This document shows, piece after piece, positions 4,916 through 48,155 of a stretch of 64,000 bases of DNA (positions are counted from its first letter, which is position 1; the number at the start of each line of letters is the position of its first letter). The notes beneath the pieces were generated by a model, which did no database searches, was not told the origin of the DNA, and saw nothing but the letters and a program-made list of their open reading frames with translations. Position numbers and translations under genes: made by a program. Source of the stretch: a phage. The stretch lies in NCBI GenBank assembly GCA_026209155.1, contig GCA_026209155.1_3056.1; one strand, 5' to 3'.

Positions 4916-5931
4916 CATTATGTTCAGATAAGGTCGTTAATCTTACCCCGGAATTATATCCAGCTGCATGTCACCATGCAGATCAGACTATATCTCCAAC
5001 TTGTTAAAGCAAGTTGTCTATCGTTTCGAGTCACTTGACCCTACTCCCCAAAGGGATAGTCGTTAGGCATTTATGTAGAACCAATTCCATTTATCAGATT
5101 TTACACGATAAGTAACTAATCCAGACGAAATTTTAAAATGTCTAGCTGCATCTGCTGCACAATCAAAAATAACCCCATCACATGAAATCTTTTTAATATT
5201 ACTAGGCTTTTTACCTTTCATCTTTTCTGATATTTTAGATTTAGTTATGTCTGAATGCTTATGATTAAAGAATGAATTATTTTCACCTGAACGATTTCTG
5301 CATTTACTACAAGTATAAGCAGAAGTTTGTATGCGAACACCGCACTTACAAAACTTATGGGTTTCTGGATTCCAACGCCCGTTTTTACTTCCGGGTTTAC
5401 TGTAAAGAGCTTTCCGACCATCAGGTCCAAGTTTAAGCATCTTAGCTTTAACAGTTTCAGAACGTTTCTTAATAATTTCTTCTTTTAATGGATGCGTAGA
5501 ACATGTATCACCAAACGTTGCATCAGCAATATTGTATCCATTAATTTTAGAATTAAGCTCTTTAATCCAAAAATTTTCTCGTTCAATAATCAAATCTTTC
5601 TCATATGGAATTTCTTCCAAAATAGAACATTCAAACACATTACCATGTTTGTTAAAAGACCTCTGAAGCTTTATAGAAGAATGGCATCCTTTTTCTAAAT
5701 CTTTAAAATGCCTCTTCCATCTCTTTTCAAAATCTTTAGCACTTCCTACATATACTTTATTGTTTAAAGTATTTTTAATCTGATAAATTCCGCTTTTCAT
5801 AAATACCTCTTTAAATATAGAAGTATTTATTAAAGGGCAGTCCTACAATTTAGCACGGGATTGTCTACTAGAGAGGTTCCCCGTTTAGATAGATTACAAG
5901 TATAAGTCACCTTATACTCAGGCCTCAATTA
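4916..5931 (-). mobile_element. Group I self-splicing intron in td (1016 nt) carrying the I-TevI gene
   Basis: Exon 1 ends ...CTTGGGT; intron begins TAATTGAGGCCTGAGTATAAGG (minus strand), ends ...AATG before exon 2 CTTCCATTTAAT; matches remembered T4 td intron ends and length. Confidence 0.9.
5063..5800 (-). CDS. Intron-encoded GIY-YIG homing endonuclease I-TevI (245 aa)
   Basis: N-terminal GIYQIKNTLNNKVYVGSAKDFEKRWKRH GIY-YIG motif; NUMOD3-like and Zn-finger region (CKCGVRIQTSAYTCSKC); lies inside the td intron. Confidence 0.92.
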   Translation of the reverse strand: MKSGIYQIKNTLNNKVYVGSAKDFEKRWKRHFKDLEKGCHSSIKLQRSFNKHGNVFECSILEEIPYEKDLIIERENFWIKELNSKINGYNIADATFGDTCSTHPLKEEIIKKRSETVKAKMLKLGPDGRKALYSKPGSKNGRWNPETHKFCKCGVRIQTSAYTCSKCRNRSGENNSFFNHKHSDITKSKISEKMKGKKPSNIKKISCDGVIFDCAADAARHFKISSGLVTYRVKSDKWNWFYINA

Positions 5932-44215: not shown

Positions 44216-44847
44216 TCAACTACCTCAATATCATAAACTTTAAATGTTCCAAATGAATTGTGTAATTTTTCTTTTGAAATAGAAGTTATTTTATACTTTC
44301 CAATTGGAATCATCCATTCTTGTTCACGCACAATCATCATTAAGTTATCAGTACGCTCTGAATCTAGCCCATCAGTATCTTCATATGTGTACTTAAACTC
44401 AGTATTAGGAGAAGAAAGTATAATATCGCTGATATGGTCAGAATAATTAAAAGCTTTATCAGTTTTTAAGCGAAATATTATTTCAGTGAAATACTCAAAA
44501 TAAGAAAAACCACATGCTGTGTGCAAACTAGTAGTAAATGAATCTACTCTGTTCGTTGAAAACACTTCTCCAACTTGTAAATCTTTAATGAGTTCTTTTG
44601 TCGATTTTGATATACCACGATATAGCTGATAAGGCGATTTAGTTAAATGTTTTTTAACGATTTTATTCAACTGCTGATGAAGAGCTTCATTCTTTTTGGC
44701 TTCCATACATTGCCAAAGAACTGACTGTTCAAAGTCAGTAAATTTTTCACAGACCTTTTTATACATATCATATTGAAAATCAACGCTTTCAGCTTTTATA
44801 GATAACTGTTCAACATCTACAAGATTAATAATCATGATAGCCTCCAT
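44212..44847 (-). CDS. modB: ADP-ribosyltransferase ModB
   Basis: 211 aa; tandem paralog of ModA with LYRGIS ... EQEWMIPIG. Confidence 0.8.
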   Translation of the reverse strand: MEAIMIINLVDVEQLSIKAESVDFQYDMYKKVCEKFTDFEQSVLWQCMEAKKNEALHQQLNKIVKKHLTKSPYQLYRGISKSTKELIKDLQVGEVFSTNRVDSFTTSLHTACGFSYFEYFTEIIFRLKTDKAFNYSDHISDIILSSPNTEFKYTYEDTDGLDSERTDNLMMIVREQEWMIPIGKYKITSISKEKLHNSFGTFKVYDIEVVE

Positions 44848-44902
44848 ATACTTCAGAAGCTATCATATCATTGTTAGGAAGGAAAGTAAACAACTTTTTG
44901 AA

Positions 44903-45085
44903 TTATTTTGCCCAGGGAGCCCAGGGCGGAGGGTCAAGATGGTATGAAGCTAGTTCTTCTAAAAGAGCATCTGGGGCTTCAATTCCATAATTCTGTAATA
45001 CTATACGGTACTCTTTCTTATAATCACTAGAATCATTCTGGATATTCGTAGAATGATTATCTTCTAACATCTCAAATAAATCCAT
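44903..45085 (-). CDS. Hypothetical small acidic protein
   Basis: 60-aa ORF. Confidence 0.45.
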   Translation of the reverse strand: MDLFEMLEDNHSTNIQNDSSDYKKEYRIVLQNYGIEAPDALLEELASYHLDPPPWAPWAK

Positions 45086-45093
45086 ATTAATTC

Positions 45094-45564
45094 CTAGCGA
45101 TAAAAACCAAAATAACGATTAGCTTCAATAATTTTTCTTTCTTCTTCGGACATTCTCCAGCGTAGTCCAACATCAAAATGAGCCCAGACCATCTTAACAA
45201 ATGCATTTATATCTTTAATATCTTCAATAATGAATGTTTTACTTTTAAAAGGTTGACTCGCTAATTTAACTTTATCATCTTCAAACAGGTCAAAAAGACC
45301 ATATTCATGAGCTCTTTTATATCCTTTAATAGTTAAAGCTTCAGAAGAAGAAAATGGTGAATCAGTATTCTGCAAAATATCTTCAGTATGCTTTATAATT
45401 AGAATAACATTTTCTGGATATTTTCTTTCTTTTATATCTTTAATTAAAAGATCCGGATTTTCTGCTAAAGGAATAATTAATGAGCACTTTTTGTCAAGCG
45501 TATTTACTGATTTACCGTCTTTAGACATAAATTCTATTGAATATAGTTTTGCTACTTCAATCAT
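45094..45564 (-). CDS. Hypothetical protein (possibly mrh-like)
   Basis: 156-aa ORF. Confidence 0.5.
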
Positions 45565-45717
45565 GCGATTTCCTCTTGCCTACTAATGGGCCGTCAGGAA
45601 TTTTGTTTTCCTGGATATATTTCTCATTTTCTTCCATCATTTTACTGCCAATTTTAAGAAGCAAATCCAGTGCTTCATTTGCTTTAGCCTTGGCCTCTTC
45701 TAGCGTCATATCTTTGT

Positions 45718-45921
45718 TCATGATTTATCCCCATAGATGTCTCTCATCAATTTAAGCGCTGAGCGTTCTAATTTCTTTTCTTTCTCAGCGCTAATCATTG
45801 ATTTCATCCATTCTTCTGATTCGTTCTGCATTTCTTTATTTGCCTGTTCAACCCAACCATCGTCAATATACATTGAGTTTGGTCTACTGAACCATTCAAG
45901 CATTTTCTTCAGAACTTTCAT
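45718..45921 (-). CDS. Hypothetical small protein
   Basis: 67-aa ORF. Confidence 0.45.
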
Positions 45922-46414
45922 TTACTTTACCCAAAACAACAGTAGGAGCATCATCAAATTCATGAATTTTTAGCAAATTTGGATGTAAACTATTCCATAC
46001 AGAAGAAATAAAGTATGATAAAGCATCTTCACTCGCAATTATAAATTTGTTTCCTTTATCTATTTTCCAGTTATATACTGAATCGTACGAATAAAAAGAT
46101 AAGGGTTTATCATTATATTGTTCTGCGCTAACATTAATGTATTCGGATTTAGTAAATGCTTCAATTGCTCTAAACGGAATATTTGGTACAGTTTCAATAA
46201 TACCAATCTTTTTAAGTTTTATTTCAGCATCTTCTGGAACTGGCATTGAAACGAAATTTTCTACGAGATACATTGGGTCACAATAACCCTTATCAATCAT
46301 TACTGCTACTGTAATTGGAACATCTTTAGCAAACGACATACTATTACTGCTAATATACATTTCAAACAAAATCGCTTCCATAATTTTCCTCAATCGCAAG
46401 ATGTAGATGAACAA
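45896..46414 (-). CDS. Hypothetical protein
   Basis: 172-aa ORF. Confidence 0.5.
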
Positions 46415-46731
46415 CTAGAATCACAAGAACTTCCACACGAATCGCCCGTCCATACATGAACAGGAACATTAGTGTCATATGAATCAGAACTAGACTGTGT
46501 ATTCTGCGTATTAGATGATGTAGTAGGTGTTGACCAGCGCCAAGGATTTTTATAATATTCTTGGGCTTCTTCATAAGTCATAGTAACTGCTTCTACTGTT
46601 CCATCTCCCATATAAACATATTCAATTACGGTTAAAGGAAGGTAGTCATTTGAAATAGGAACTACACCTTCTCCAGGAGCTGTAGAGAAAAAATCCGTAA
46701 AGAAACTTTTAAACCAATTAAAGATAAACAT
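46390..46731 (-). CDS. Hypothetical protein with Ser/Thr-rich linker and Cys/Ser-rich C-terminal tail ([15 protein letters not shown])
   Basis: 113-aa ORF. Confidence 0.5.
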
Positions 46732-46937
46732 TACAAAAAGCCTCTCTTGAATTCAACTTGCTTCTCACCATAATCATATCGAATCTCTGCGTTAAATTCG
46801 ACAGAACCATCTGCGTACATCATAAATGAATGCACAACAACTTCTGTAGACCATGGCTGTAGTTCATATTTCTTCATTACATGCCGTGAAATGATAATAT
46901 CTAAATCTTCATTTGGTTTAATCCAACGATTTAACAT
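46731..46937 (-). CDS. Hypothetical small protein
   Basis: 68-aa ORF. Confidence 0.45.
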   Translation of the reverse strand: MLNRWIKPNEDLDIIISRHVMKKYELQPWSTEVVVHSFMMYADGSVEFNAEIRYDYGEKQVEFKRGFL

Positions 46938-46994
46938 AGTGCTCTCCTCTATAAGATAATTTTATTATACCATACTCATTTTGGAAAGTAAACC

Positions 46995-47028
46995 AGTAAA
47001 ATAAAAAAGGACTCCCGAAGGAGTCCTT
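46995..47028 (-). terminator. Rho-independent terminator downstream of soc
   Basis: Minus-strand AAGGACUCC-UUCG-GGAGUCCUU followed by UUUUUUAUUUU. Confidence 0.7.
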
Positions 47029-47034
47029 GAATTA

Positions 47035-47280
47035 TTAACCGCCAGTTACTTTCCACAAATCTTCGTTTGCAGCAATCCACGCAGCACGTTGATTTTCTTC
47101 ATATACAGTAGTATATGCTGCTTTTTCTGAAGGGAATGTCTGGTAATGAGCACCAGAAATTTTGTGAACGTCAGAATAAAGAGGGAAAGCTACAGAAATT
47201 TCCTTTCCTTCAATTTTCTTATTTCCATCTAATTTCTGCTCAAATGTTTTGATATTAACATAACCGCGAGTACTAGCCAT
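47035..47280 (-). CDS. soc: Small outer capsid protein Soc
   Basis: 81-aa ORF; N-terminus MASTRGYVNIKTFEQKLDGNKKIEGKEISVAFPLY. Confidence 0.88.
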   Translation of the reverse strand: MASTRGYVNIKTFEQKLDGNKKIEGKEISVAFPLYSDVHKISGAHYQTFPSEKAAYTTVYEENQRAAWIAANEDLWKVTGG

Positions 47281-47310
47281 GTAATTCTCCTTTTATTTAA
47301 ATTACATGAT

Positions 47311-47318
47311 TATTTATA
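47311..47318 (-). promoter_or_regulatory. Late promoter TATAAATA upstream of soc
   Basis: Plus-strand TATTTATA is TATAAATA on the minus strand, about 30 nt upstream of soc ATG. Confidence 0.6.
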
Positions 47319-47364
47319 ATAATAATTCTCGCGGCTTTTAAGTCGTCGTTAAAAAAACGAGCTA

Positions 47365-47883
47365 TTAATAACCTCGGTCTTGACGAGCGAAGTTTTCAGC
47401 ATTTTTCAGATAATAAAGTTTAAAGATTTCTTCAGCCGTAAGACCGAGACCTTGGAACATGTTCAGAACGAAATGAAGAATATCAATCATTTCGAATTTA
47501 ATTTCCAACTGGTCTTGCGGAGACAAATCAGTAATTAGAGTTTCACGACGTTCACCATGTTGAGCTTTCCAAGGCTTCCATACAGCAGATGCATCTTTTT
47601 CGCCATTGCTCATACCGCCAAGAGAAGTTAGAAGTTCACGGAATTCATCGTCAATATAATCTTTCTGATTACGCAGCCAATCAACAACTTCACCTGCAGT
47701 AGCCAAATCATCAGGATGACGGTTATATTCAGGTTTATCTTTAGCTAAACGAACTTGCAGAGATTTCTGCATATCAAGCATAACCTGCAGTGGGTCTTTT
47801 TCATCACCGAGAATATCCCAGTATTCATTTTGAGCTTTATCAGCGCCTTCGATCAGTTGTGAACATTCATTAAAGTATGCCAT
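47365..47883 (-). CDS. 56: dCTPase/dUTPase gp56 (MazG-like), from internal Met MAYFNE; track ORF 47365..47976
   Basis: 172 aa from internal Met; MotA-type promoter lies inside the track N-terminal extension. Confidence 0.85.
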   Translation of the reverse strand: MAYFNECSQLIEGADKAQNEYWDILGDEKDPLQVMLDMQKSLQVRLAKDKPEYNRHPDDLATAGEVVDWLRNQKDYIDDEFRELLTSLGGMSNGEKDASAVWKPWKAQHGERRETLITDLSPQDQLEIKFEMIDILHFVLNMFQGLGLTAEEIFKLYYLKNAENFARQDRGY

Positions 47884-47917
47884 TATTTTTCCTTTCAATT
47901 CATGGGTTAGTAGATTA

Positions 47918-47942
47918 ATTATACAATAAATATATAAAGCAA
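47918..47942 (-). promoter_or_regulatory. MotA-dependent middle promoter for gene 56
   Basis: Minus-strand TTGCTTTA, 11-nt spacer, TATAAT, about 30 nt upstream of gp56 ATG. Confidence 0.6.
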
Positions 47943-47954
47943 TAAGGAGGACAT

Positions 47955-48155
47955 ATGGTGCAAAAATTAATGGCACTTGTTGATGCCATCAAAGGTAATA
48001 AAAAACGTATAGCTTTTACTATTTCTGCTATGATAGGAATTTTACTTTGGAATTTTGTTTTATCGCCAGTTGCTATTGCTCATGGCGTTAGTATTCCAGT
48101 AATTACTCTTGATACATTCGTAGATTTAGCATTTGCTTTAGTTGGGTTAATTTAA
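47955..48155 (+). CDS. Small hydrophobic membrane protein (66 aa) on the opposite strand between genes 56 and 61
   Basis: AGGAGG Shine-Dalgarno 5 nt upstream of ATG; two predicted TM segments; stop overlaps gene 61 stop. Confidence 0.55.
   Translation: MVQKLMALVDAIKGNKKRIAFTISAMIGILLWNFVLSPVAIAHGVSIPVITLDTFVDLAFALVGLI

Follow-up and report, generated by a model that had tools for sequence, protein, structure and literature searches.

The DNA analysed here (the window) is a stretch of 64,000 nucleotides from a phage. When the query was compared with phage records by megablast, 571 records were matched, 495 of them with at least 80% query coverage and the best with 97.7% nucleotide identity, and by this comparison the window belongs to a Tequatrovirus, a T4-like coliphage. 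The segment at 44903–46937 on the minus strand, between modB and soc, evidently consists of seven genes of a non-essential early cluster, in the order modA.2-modA.3-modA.4-srh-mrh-mrh.1-mrh.2. From modB to soc, all seven follow the order and strand annotated in T4 and PP01, every product has the length of its T4 counterpart and each of the seven proteins matches a PHROG family. Amino acid identities to T4 are 98.3% for ModA.2, 94.2% for ModA.3, 98.1% for ModA.4, 98.5% for Srh, 77.0% for Mrh, 97.3% for Mrh.1 and 98.5% for Mrh.2. As is apparent from their coordinates, the genes are closely packed or overlapping, all on the minus strand, and with dN/dS values of 0.02–0.29 relative to T4 they are under purifying selection.

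The corresponding T4 segment (NC_000866, 13198–15232) has the same seven genes, with equal order, strand, overlaps and lengths, and shares with the window the upstream terminator, the early promoter and the ribosome-binding site (RBS). The two phages differ in the mrh allele, which is far more diverged than its neighbours (dS of 0.48 versus ∼0.06–0.14 for the outer genes), and beyond soc, where segF and dam are absent from the window and its allele of gene 56 is only 74% identical to that of T4. The modA.2–mrh.2 region is described as dispensable in the T4 literature, and the block lies within this dispensable early region between modB and soc. These genes are already known: they are a standard part of the T4 genome and recur in hundreds of Tequatroviruses sequenced to date. 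Many GenBank phage records name these ORFs ‘molybdenum ABC transporter’, an erroneous label that is spreading.

A previous, sequence-only reading had placed six ORFs in this interval and had identified it as the T4 mrh region, a placement that the T4 and PP01 gene orders confirm. All six are present as described on the minus strand, but the number of genes is seven, modA.4 (54 residues, 45557–45721) having been overlooked in the gap between the 156-residue and 67-residue ORFs, where the T4 and PP01 annotations also have it. Similarly, the reported 172-residue ORF (45896–46414) exists, but the gene itself, mrh, encodes 161 residues from an ATG at 46381 and the TTG-initiated extension is spurious. 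The shorter form is assigned because the sequence GAGGAAA lies just upstream of this ATG and because 161 residues is the length of T4 Mrh and of nearly all full-length homologues in the databases. These findings correct the number of genes and the position of one start codon. It had also been stated that none of the ORFs could be assigned a function. Most of the products are indeed without a known function, but all have named T4 orthologues (77–98.5% identical). For mrh and srh, the literature reports genetic phenotypes that connect them with sigma-32 and heat shock, and three products fall into Pfam families, Mrh and ModA.3 into PF24070 and Mrh.1 into PF23836 (DUF7206). T4 homologues were found for all six of the ORFs, and a housekeeping function for none of them.

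Transcription signals of the block

The upstream boundary of the unit is marked by an intrinsic terminator located after soc by motif scan (47007–47028, minus strand), with the stem-loop AAGGACTCC-TTCG-GGAGTCCTT followed by a run of T. The stem is preserved in JS98 and VR5 through compensatory changes. Next to it lies a T4-type early sigma-70 promoter (46964–46992, minus strand), which of all sites in the region scores highest as a promoter (10 of 12 positions, with TG) and in which the −35 element TTTACT is contained within an invariant GTTTACTTT and is separated by a 17-nt spacer from an extended −10 element, TGgTATAAT. The promoter is retained in T4, PP01, JS98 and VR5, and an RBS, AGAGGAGA, is situated between it and mrh.2. 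A second early-promoter-like site (TTTACT, 17-nt spacer, TG-TATGAT), a consensus match only, is found on the same strand in the gap between modA.2 and modB (44862–44890) and forms the downstream edge of the block. Motif scans for the MotA box and for the late promoter motif TATAAATA gave no match inside the block.

These features agree with the T4 literature, in which modA, modB, srh and mrh are described downstream of the early promoters Pe15.0 and Pe12.8, and in which the RNA of all seven genes is classified as early, a class determined for T4 rather than for this phage. We propose that the seven genes are transcribed as one polycistronic early mRNA that would read on into modB and modA. This single transcript is deduced from the promoter and terminator positions and the published early class rather than from a mapped transcript. 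The cluster would then encode small host-takeover or accessory effectors that are made within the first minutes of infection. Taken together, the identity of the genes and their reading as an early operon are, in our judgement, close to certain.

Mrh, ModA.3, Srh and the smallest genes

Mrh (45896–46381, minus strand) and ModA.3 (156 residues, 45094–45564, minus strand) both match the Pfam family T4_MRH (PF24070, gathering threshold 24.4 bits), with scores of 146.5 and 128.9 bits, respectively, over positions 1–143 of the 144-position model. By these profile matches they are paralogues, both aligning to the family model from end to end, yet their mutual identity is only ∼17–18%. Of the two, Mrh alone is covered by genetic data, and ModA.3 is frequently named ‘Mrh’ in RefSeq through family transfer. 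In a database search, Mrh homologues formed 109 clusters (90% identity). In the Dhakavirus and Kanagawavirus loci that were sampled, ModA.3 is the sole T4_MRH gene, and it is, on this comparison, the more widely conserved of the two copies. In T4, mrh modulates the expression of late genes when rpoH (sigma-32) is mutated or the host is heat-shocked, and an mrh mutation restores this expression in rpoH mutants when the temperature is high; these data concern the T4 allele, to which that of the window is 77% identical. One pairwise comparison with T4 gave no sign of positive selection behind the divergence of mrh: the dN/dS (0.28) is like that of modA.3 and it is dS that is high (0.48). The divergence looks like that of an old allele shifted by recombination. 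An AlphaFold2 model of Mrh, based on a 28-sequence alignment of Mrh and ModA.3, reached a pLDDT of 47 and a pTM of 0.42. A Foldseek search of the PDB with this low-confidence model returned nothing at E≤0.001, a result to which, given the poor model, no negative weight is attached. A cryo-EM structure of a megadalton assembly of Mrh, at 3.3 Å, is mentioned in PMC8076793; it would define the PF24070 fold and with it that of ModA.3.

The srh gene (67 residues, 45718–45921, minus strand; phrog_2441) shares 26 nt with the 3′ end of mrh. Srh modulates late transcription in T4 when rpoH is mutated or the host is heat-shocked, and the T4 annotation postulates that it is a sigma-32 decoy. Residues 23–60 of Srh align with residues 244–279 of E. 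coli RpoH at 32% identity over 38 residues, a short and weak match (pairwise E=7e-4). The similarity is to sigma-32 region 4, on which the decoy proposal is based, whereas Srh, with only 67 residues, lacks the other sigma regions, and the Pfam model for sigma-70 region 4 finds no match in Srh.

The shortest ORFs of the block, of 60, 54, 67 and 68 residues, lack functional annotation and come from an ORF list that is purely mechanical, and they might be viewed as chance ORFs of an AT-rich early region rather than as genes. This view is effectively refuted, with next to no probability left to it, by several types of evidence. Orthologues that share conserved motifs are found for each of the four in other genera, each belongs to a PHROG family and their dN/dS values are 0.02–0.12. 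In ModA.2 (acidic, 44903–45085, minus strand; phrog_1647), the C-terminal sequence DPPPWAPW(A/V)K is nearly invariant and recurs, with a single G variant, in JS98, VR5-like phages and CIP9. In ModA.4 (minus strand; phrog_2681), which has a dN/dS of 0.02, a core of 31 residues is nearly invariant across genera. The mrh.2 gene (46731–46937, minus strand; phrog_1873), the stop codon of which overlaps the start of mrh.1 (TAATG), the two being taken as translationally coupled, is conserved in Tequatrovirus and Dhakavirus loci. Furthermore, mass spectrometry has detected six of the seven proteins in T4, including ModA.2, ModA.4, Srh and Mrh.2.

Mrh.1 is unclassified in the T4 proteomic data, which is uninformative since the protein contains only three Lys or Arg residues. 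Searches of the full-text literature for mrh.1, modA.2 and DUF7206 found no paper that discusses them. No significant PDB match was obtained for any of the seven proteins or for the profile of Mrh.1. The NCBIfam models that match proteins of the block are all for families of unknown function, and the PADLOC defence models gave nothing except a chance match, of 12 bits, between Mrh.2 and BrxC.

Architecture and conserved tail of Mrh.1

The mrh.1 gene (46390–46731, minus strand) encodes a protein of 113 amino acids that matches PF23836 (DUF7206) with 101.6 bits (gathering threshold 25.6), residues 3–113 aligning with positions 1–107 of the 107-position model. The protein is therefore a typical member of this family (phrog_2031), with a match that spans its full length, C-terminal tail included. 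An N-terminal amphipathic segment is followed by a small core of a beta-hairpin and a helix, a variable linker rich in Ser and Thr (residues 66–90) and a conserved tail of Cys, Ser and Asp. Both the linker and the Cys/Ser-rich end had been pointed out in the sequence-only reading, and they are as it described them. AlphaFold2 run on the single sequence gave a pLDDT of 46, with ∼65 for the hairpin and helix, the remainder disordered and the tail below 50. The middle region is swapped among homologues and is doubled in the insertion variant P0003, with both ends retained. Frameshifted or truncated alleles (P0006 and L010) also occur and are consistent with dispensability.

The N-terminal aromatic and amphipathic segment (17 residues, 46681–46731, minus strand) has a hydrophobic moment of 0.45–0.81 among family members, and W6 and K8 are invariant. 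The membrane-targeting helices of MreB and FtsA give comparable hydrophobic moments by the same computation. We infer from these properties that the helix may be a peripheral membrane-binding or partner-binding element. A motif (W-L-K..F..P) that might be common to the N termini of Mrh.1, Srh and Mrh.2 was discarded, as an HMM of the Mrh.1 N terminus matches only Mrh.1 in the window. Paralogy between Mrh.1 and Mrh.2 based on their Y-M-x-D-G-x-V-E hairpins was also rejected (hhalign probability of 0.2%).

A word-indexed search recovered relatives of Mrh.1 in seven clusters, and HMMER, run exhaustively over 1.84 billion representatives, produced ten matches, which are from Tevenvirinae or are fragments, with no genuine relative from outside the Tevenvirinae. 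One match (P0012), a repetitive, eukaryote-like protein of 1152 residues, is spurious. Over three genera of Tevenvirinae the C-terminal motif W94–D113 (46393–46452, minus strand) has the consensus W-x-G-D-S…S-C-[D/G]-S…S-C-D-COOH, with 12 invariant positions (W94, G96, D97, S98, D104, S105, C107, S108, S109, S111, C112 and D113, in alignment A1), and the motif recurs in 13 IMG/VR loci, including those of Dhakavirus and Kanagawavirus (CIP9).

Could such a tail be a functionless, low-complexity or disordered spacer, or a product of codon slippage, in which the Cys residues are incidental? The low pLDDT of the tail, its masking by the BLAST low-complexity filter and the lineage-dependent number of its Cys residues (four or two) would fit this explanation. 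Against it, the 12 positions remain invariant over three genera, next to a middle region that cannot be aligned, the tail stays intact in P0003 and the tail codons have undergone synonymous changes (TGT/TGC, TCN/AGY and GGC/GGT) with the residues kept. A slippage-prone DNA tandem repeat was sought and TRF finds none. The Cys frequency is 1.24% in the 93 ORFs of the window with at least 80 residues; only two of these proteins have at least four Cys in a 20-residue window, and only Mrh.1 has at least eight Ser there as well. The clustering of Cys in Mrh.1 is beyond chance. Hence, we consider a functionless tail quite improbable, and the alignments argue that it is a conserved motif in which two Cys residues are invariant and on which purifying selection acts.

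The members of PF23836 differ in that the tail has four Cys in the T4 type and two in Dhakavirus and Kanagawavirus. The four-Cys pattern is thus lineage-specific, only two Cys being invariant. Spacing also varies, with CX3CX3CX4C in the tail of the T4 type, CX6C in Dhakavirus and CX8C in CIP9 and the T4 type. A classical Cys4 zinc ribbon or knuckle, for which two CxxC (or CxxxxC) pairs of fixed spacing should be conserved among the members, was rejected on these grounds: there is no CxxC knuckle, the spacing is variable and just two Cys are invariant, which makes a rigid zinc site unlikely.

Possible roles of the Mrh.1 tail

We tentatively propose that the amphipathic helix and beta-hairpin of Mrh.1 would serve as an anchoring or partner-binding module, that this would be followed by a disordered and replaceable linker, and that the two invariant thiols of the terminal S-C-[D/G]-S..S..S-C-D-COOH, together with the flanking Asp and Ser residues, may coordinate a metal or an Fe–S or thiolate centre. 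Such coordination could be intramolecular in the four-Cys T4 type and could bridge the two halves of a dimer or involve a partner protein in the two-Cys types. Homology does not tie Mrh.1 to a metal, redox chemistry or a partner, and this thiol or metal mechanism is put forward as a possibility that falls well short of being probable.

The same features could be read without any metal, the tail being a short linear motif that docks onto a protein of the host or of the phage, for instance by imitating the C-terminal tail of a host protein, and in which the Cys residues provide contacts or form a reversible dithiol/disulfide. The position of the motif at the extreme C terminus on a disordered, replaceable linker is in keeping with docking, as are the invariance of the terminal Asp and of the W-x-G-D-S element and the variable Cys spacing, which is easier to reconcile with a flexible dithiol or a docking peptide than with a rigid metal site. 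The tail of Mrh.1 may, by analogy, be likened to the flexible pair of Cys residues at the C terminus of class I ribonucleotide reductase R1, which exchanges with thioredoxin or glutaredoxin. Docking has no known partner, however, and no solved chain is similar to Mrh.1 by sequence or profile; overall we regard it as rather unlikely.

The Ser/Cys-rich composition of the C terminus also resembles that of lanthipeptide or thiopeptide cores, and the tail could in principle be a core of the RiPP type (lanthipeptide or azoline), modified post-translationally at Ser and Cys, with the N-terminal 90 residues as the leader. FxLD lanthipeptides (TIGR04363) have, like Mrh.1, a Ser/Cys-rich C-terminal peptide after a longer N-terminal part, and residues 95–109 have a weak NCBIfam match to the TIGR04363 precursor (E=0.013, 15.5 bits). 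This match is well under the curated cutoff of 30 bits, spans 15 residues and is driven by composition, and just two Cys of the tail are conserved. In addition, Mrh.1 is, unlike RiPP precursors, an intracellular early phage product without modification enzymes nearby. The neighbours of mrh.1 are mrh.2, mrh and soc, and no dehydratase, cyclase, YcaO or radical-SAM protein was found among the neighbours, using Pfam, NCBIfam and PHROGs, or in the related loci examined. A RiPP-type core is consequently very hard to credit.

We consider it highly probable that the locus is, overall, best explained as a T4-type modA.2–mrh.2 cluster, the model of the Mrh.1 tail described above being held at the much lower strength given there. 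A more specific and, in our estimate, unlikely extension of the thiol or metal mechanism is that Mrh.1 is a new small early effector, in which the amphipathic anchor would present an S-C-D…S-C-D dithiol on a disposable linker, capturing a metal or an Fe–S centre or engaging a thiol-dependent enzyme of the host, for which a redoxin, a protease and a cysteine desulfurase relay are examples. If true, this would represent a thiol-based mechanism of host takeover or anti-defence that is so far undescribed for T4. The conserved tail with its two Cys residues offers a concrete and cheap experimental handle on a T4 early gene.

Gene content and synteny of the mrh region

The minus-strand interval 44903–46937 is occupied by seven genes: modA.2 (44903–45085), modA.3 (45094–45564), modA.4 (45557–45721), srh (45718–45921), mrh (45896–46381), mrh.1 (46390–46731) and mrh.2 (46731–46937). 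The sequence-only reading had placed six ORFs here, each confirmed on the minus strand at the stated coordinates, but its count was one short, as the ORF list contains a seventh of 54 amino acids (45557–45721) that fills the gap separating the 156- and 67-residue ORFs. Its 172-residue ORF is indeed a gene, that of Mrh, but was extended to an upstream TTG; counted from the ATG at 46381, which follows GAGGAAA, the protein has 161 residues, as do T4 Mrh and almost every full-length homologue in the database. A megablast search of 50,697 phage records with 44800–47300 matched 571, with 495 covering at least 80% of the query. The matches are nearly all T4-like phages of Escherichia, Shigella or Yersinia, the best being Escherichia phage vB_Eco-B1.1 (97.7% identical), and the window is therefore assigned to Tequatrovirus.

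The proposed synteny with the T4 mrh region was confirmed, since the annotation tables of T4 and PP01 give this series, modA.2-modA.3-modA.4-srh-mrh-mrh.1-mrh.2, from modB to soc. All protein lengths are identical to those in T4, and global alignments give amino acid identities of 98.3% (modA.2), 94.2% (modA.3), 98.1% (modA.4), 98.5% (srh), 77.0% (mrh), 97.3% (mrh.1) and 98.5% (mrh.2). Each ORF has the tested features of a T4 gene family that is already described. In many T4-like GenBank genomes (for example ON871820, MF001360 and MH051916) several of these small ORFs are labelled 'molybdenum ABC transporter (periplasmic molybdenum-binding protein)', presumably a propagating annotation error in which T4 modA/modB were confused with modA/modB of bacterial molybdate transport.

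For two genes that T4 has between soc and gene 61 (here 47280–48152), segF (homing endonuclease) and dam (methyltransferase), tblastn gave no match anywhere in the 64-kb window, and in PP01 two small hypothetical ORFs replace segF. Gene 56 (dCTPase, 47368–47883) is only 74% identical to T4 gp56. Between genes 56 and 61, a very hydrophobic 66-residue ORF on the opposite strand (47955–48155, plus strand) exactly fills the gap; it matches phrog_2024 (unknown function, E=5.5e-30) and is unannotated in the PP01 record. In Enterobacter phage CIP9 (Kanagawavirus), a separate soc gene is followed by a 504-residue 'hoc / head decoration' gene (L018 1218–2732 / L020 119–1633), annotated as a GDSL/SGNH lipase in related phages, whose product resembles Soc in its N-terminal segment (phmmer against Soc, E=3.5e-9). 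Judged from these similarities, the capsid of such phages may display a fusion of Soc with an SGNH hydrolase.

Transcription, expression and constraint

A strong intrinsic terminator (47028–47007) lies directly after soc, and the region's best promoter match comes next (46992–46964; TTTACT, a 17-nt spacer and TGgTATAAT), with the ribosome-binding site AGAGGAGA downstream of it, just ahead of mrh.2. Alignment to the T4, PP01, JS98 and VR5 sequences shows an invariant −35 block (GTTTACTTT), an invariant ribosome-binding site and a terminator stem preserved via compensatory changes. Neither a MotA-box middle promoter nor a late TATAAATA promoter was found inside the block; a late promoter is located ahead of soc (47311–47318) and a MotA-type site ahead of gene 56. 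The genes of the block overlap or are separated by gaps of at most 8 nt, with overlaps of TAATG at mrh.2/mrh.1, 26 nt at mrh/srh, 4 nt at srh/modA.4 and 8 nt at modA.4/modA.3, and between modA.2 and modB there is another site that resembles an early promoter (44890–44862). From this arrangement we infer that the block is transcribed early as a single polycistronic unit, with read-through into modB and modA, in agreement with published T4 work in which modA, modB, srh and mrh lie downstream of the early promoters Pe15.0 and Pe12.8. We propose that the block functions as an early operon for host takeover or accessory roles, on evidence shown here or taken from the literature.

All seven ORFs are genes. 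Their dN/dS values relative to T4 are 0.02–0.29, each matches a PHROG family, and Dhakavirus loci contain orthologues with invariant motifs for six of the seven; mrh is confined to Tequatrovirus among the loci compared. CIP9 also carries ModA.2, a ModA.3-like protein and Mrh.1. In a time-resolved omics supplement for T4 (PMC9697503), RNA of all seven genes is of the early class, and the proteins were detected as 'middle' (ModA.3, ModA.4, Srh, Mrh and Mrh.2) or 'late' (ModA.2), leaving only Mrh.1 without a protein class. Mrh.1 contains just three Lys/Arg residues and is therefore expected to escape tryptic proteomics. Pfam, PHROGs, NCBIfam and PADLOC gave no functional annotation for ModA.2, ModA.4, Mrh.1 or Mrh.2, none of the seven proteins has a chain in the PDB copy searched, and searches of open-access full texts turned up no mention of mrh.1, modA.2 or DUF7206. 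The C terminus of ModA.2 carries a near-invariant Pro/Trp motif, DPPPWAPW(A/V)K (phage loci L004 and L011–L018), and a 31-residue core of ModA.4 is almost unchanged across genera whose other proteins are only 40–60% identical. Such strong constraint makes an interaction motif likely in both cases.

Mrh, ModA.3 and Srh

The Pfam model PF24070 (T4_MRH) is matched over its whole length by both Mrh and ModA.3, which are paralogues with about 17–18% identity. Both copies occur in Tequatrovirus loci only; in the loci sampled from Dhakavirus and Kanagawavirus the ModA.3-like copy stands alone. According to the literature, late transcription of T4 is influenced by mrh and srh in rpoH mutants and at 42 °C, the region is dispensable in T4, and recombinant Mrh is soluble and migrates as a megadalton assembly; the same source refers to a 3.3 Å cryo-EM structure of it without presenting it (PMC8076793). 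Even with a 28-sequence alignment, AF2 modelled Mrh poorly (pLDDT 47), and a fold search with that model was uninformative. Srh is 32% identical over 38 residues to residues 244–279 (region 4) of E. coli RpoH (pairwise E=7e-4), a similarity that would explain the origin of the 'sigma-32 decoy' proposal but is insufficient to establish a decoy.

Relative to T4, mrh is a divergence hotspot (77% amino acid and 83% nucleotide identity, dS 0.48) compared with the outer genes of the block (96–98% nucleotide identity), and dS is also raised in its neighbours srh (0.29) and modA.4 (0.40). Protein-database clusters at 90% identity number 109 for Mrh versus 7 for Mrh.1. The divergence has the look of recombination among old alleles rather than of obvious positive selection (dN/dS 0.28).

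Mrh.1 and its C-terminal cysteine motif

The Cys/Ser-rich tail reported for the 113-residue protein was quoted exactly, and the protein is Mrh.1 (Pfam DUF7206). Its composition is exceptional in the window, where Cys makes up 1.24% of long ORFs and four Cys within 20 residues occur in two proteins only. The other is a 245-residue protein (5063–5800, minus strand; …HKFCKCGVRIQTSAYTCSKC…) whose cluster is CxC…CxxC and zinc-finger-like. The family is narrow: a word-indexed search found seven Mrh.1 clusters, exhaustive HMMER against 1.84 billion representatives gave 10 hits, and tblastn located Mrh.1 in 582 phage records, all T4-like.

The window protein was aligned with database relatives (42–60% identity), JS98 and 13 full-length IMG/VR sequences, including VR5 and CIP9. 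The 28 invariant columns are grouped in an N-terminal block (W6, K8, F15, P19, G22, V24, P25, E37-Y-x-Y-M-G-D-G..E.V49) and a C-terminal block (W94, G96, D97, S98, D104, S105, C107, S108, S109, S111, C112, D113), between which the 40–60 residues of the T4-type middle cannot be aligned with the Dhakavirus type. Mrh.1 of Escherichia phage 235Ecol030PP (P0003; 164 residues, 17 member sequences) has both middles in tandem, the T4 type followed in frame by about 50 residues of the Dhakavirus type, with both ends kept; it looks like a natural inter-genus recombinant. Its Cys tail is intact, and the variant shows that the linker tolerates changes in length. Distant members have two cysteines only (...S-C-D-S-S-S-S-S-C-D in Dhakavirus, ...S-C-D-S-G-S-S-G-G-S-C-D in CIP9); the four-Cys pattern is therefore a feature of the T4 type alone, and what all members share is the core S-C-[D/G]-S...S-C-D-COOH.

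Tail codons alternate (TGT/TGC, TCN/AGY, GGC/GGT) while the residues are fixed, and TRF found no repeat in the tail DNA. Hence the tail is under purifying selection at the protein level rather than being a slippage product or neutral spacer. That it is 'meaningless low complexity' is improbable, as the conservation data speak against it. At least one deposited genome (P0006, a 175-kb NCBI contig) and one metagenomic contig (L010 2095–2428) carry frameshifted mrh.1 alleles without the Cys tail, which are either sequencing errors or natural losses of a dispensable gene.

Single-sequence AF2 places a β-hairpin (34–52) and a helix (53–61) in Mrh.1 at pLDDT of about 65, with all else disordered. 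The helical hydrophobic moment of the first 10–17 residues (0.45–0.81) is within the range computed for MreB/FtsA membrane-targeting helices, which suggests a putative amphipathic anchor or docking helix. Neither an N-terminal motif common to Mrh.1, Srh and Mrh.2 nor Mrh.1/Mrh.2 paralogy was supported.

We propose that Mrh.1 is a small effector built of two parts, in which the flexible C-terminal thiol motif would be the functional end. In our favoured but tentative reading, this motif might coordinate a metal or thiolate centre, intramolecular in the four-Cys type and intermolecular in the two-Cys types. The main alternative, slightly less probable, is that the tail would serve as a metal-free docking or dithiol motif, which might in principle resemble the two Cys residues on the flexible C terminus of R1 in class I RNR. 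The tail composition and a match to FxLD lanthipeptide precursors in NCBIfam that falls below threshold (15.5 bits versus a cutoff of 30) would fit a RiPP-like peptide, but we consider this very improbable because no modification enzyme is encoded nearby.

The cluster itself is already known, and the sole addition made here is the conserved two-Cys C-terminal motif and modular build of DUF7206. No long-standing question is otherwise made testable; the motif offers a low-cost target for mutating one orphan early gene.
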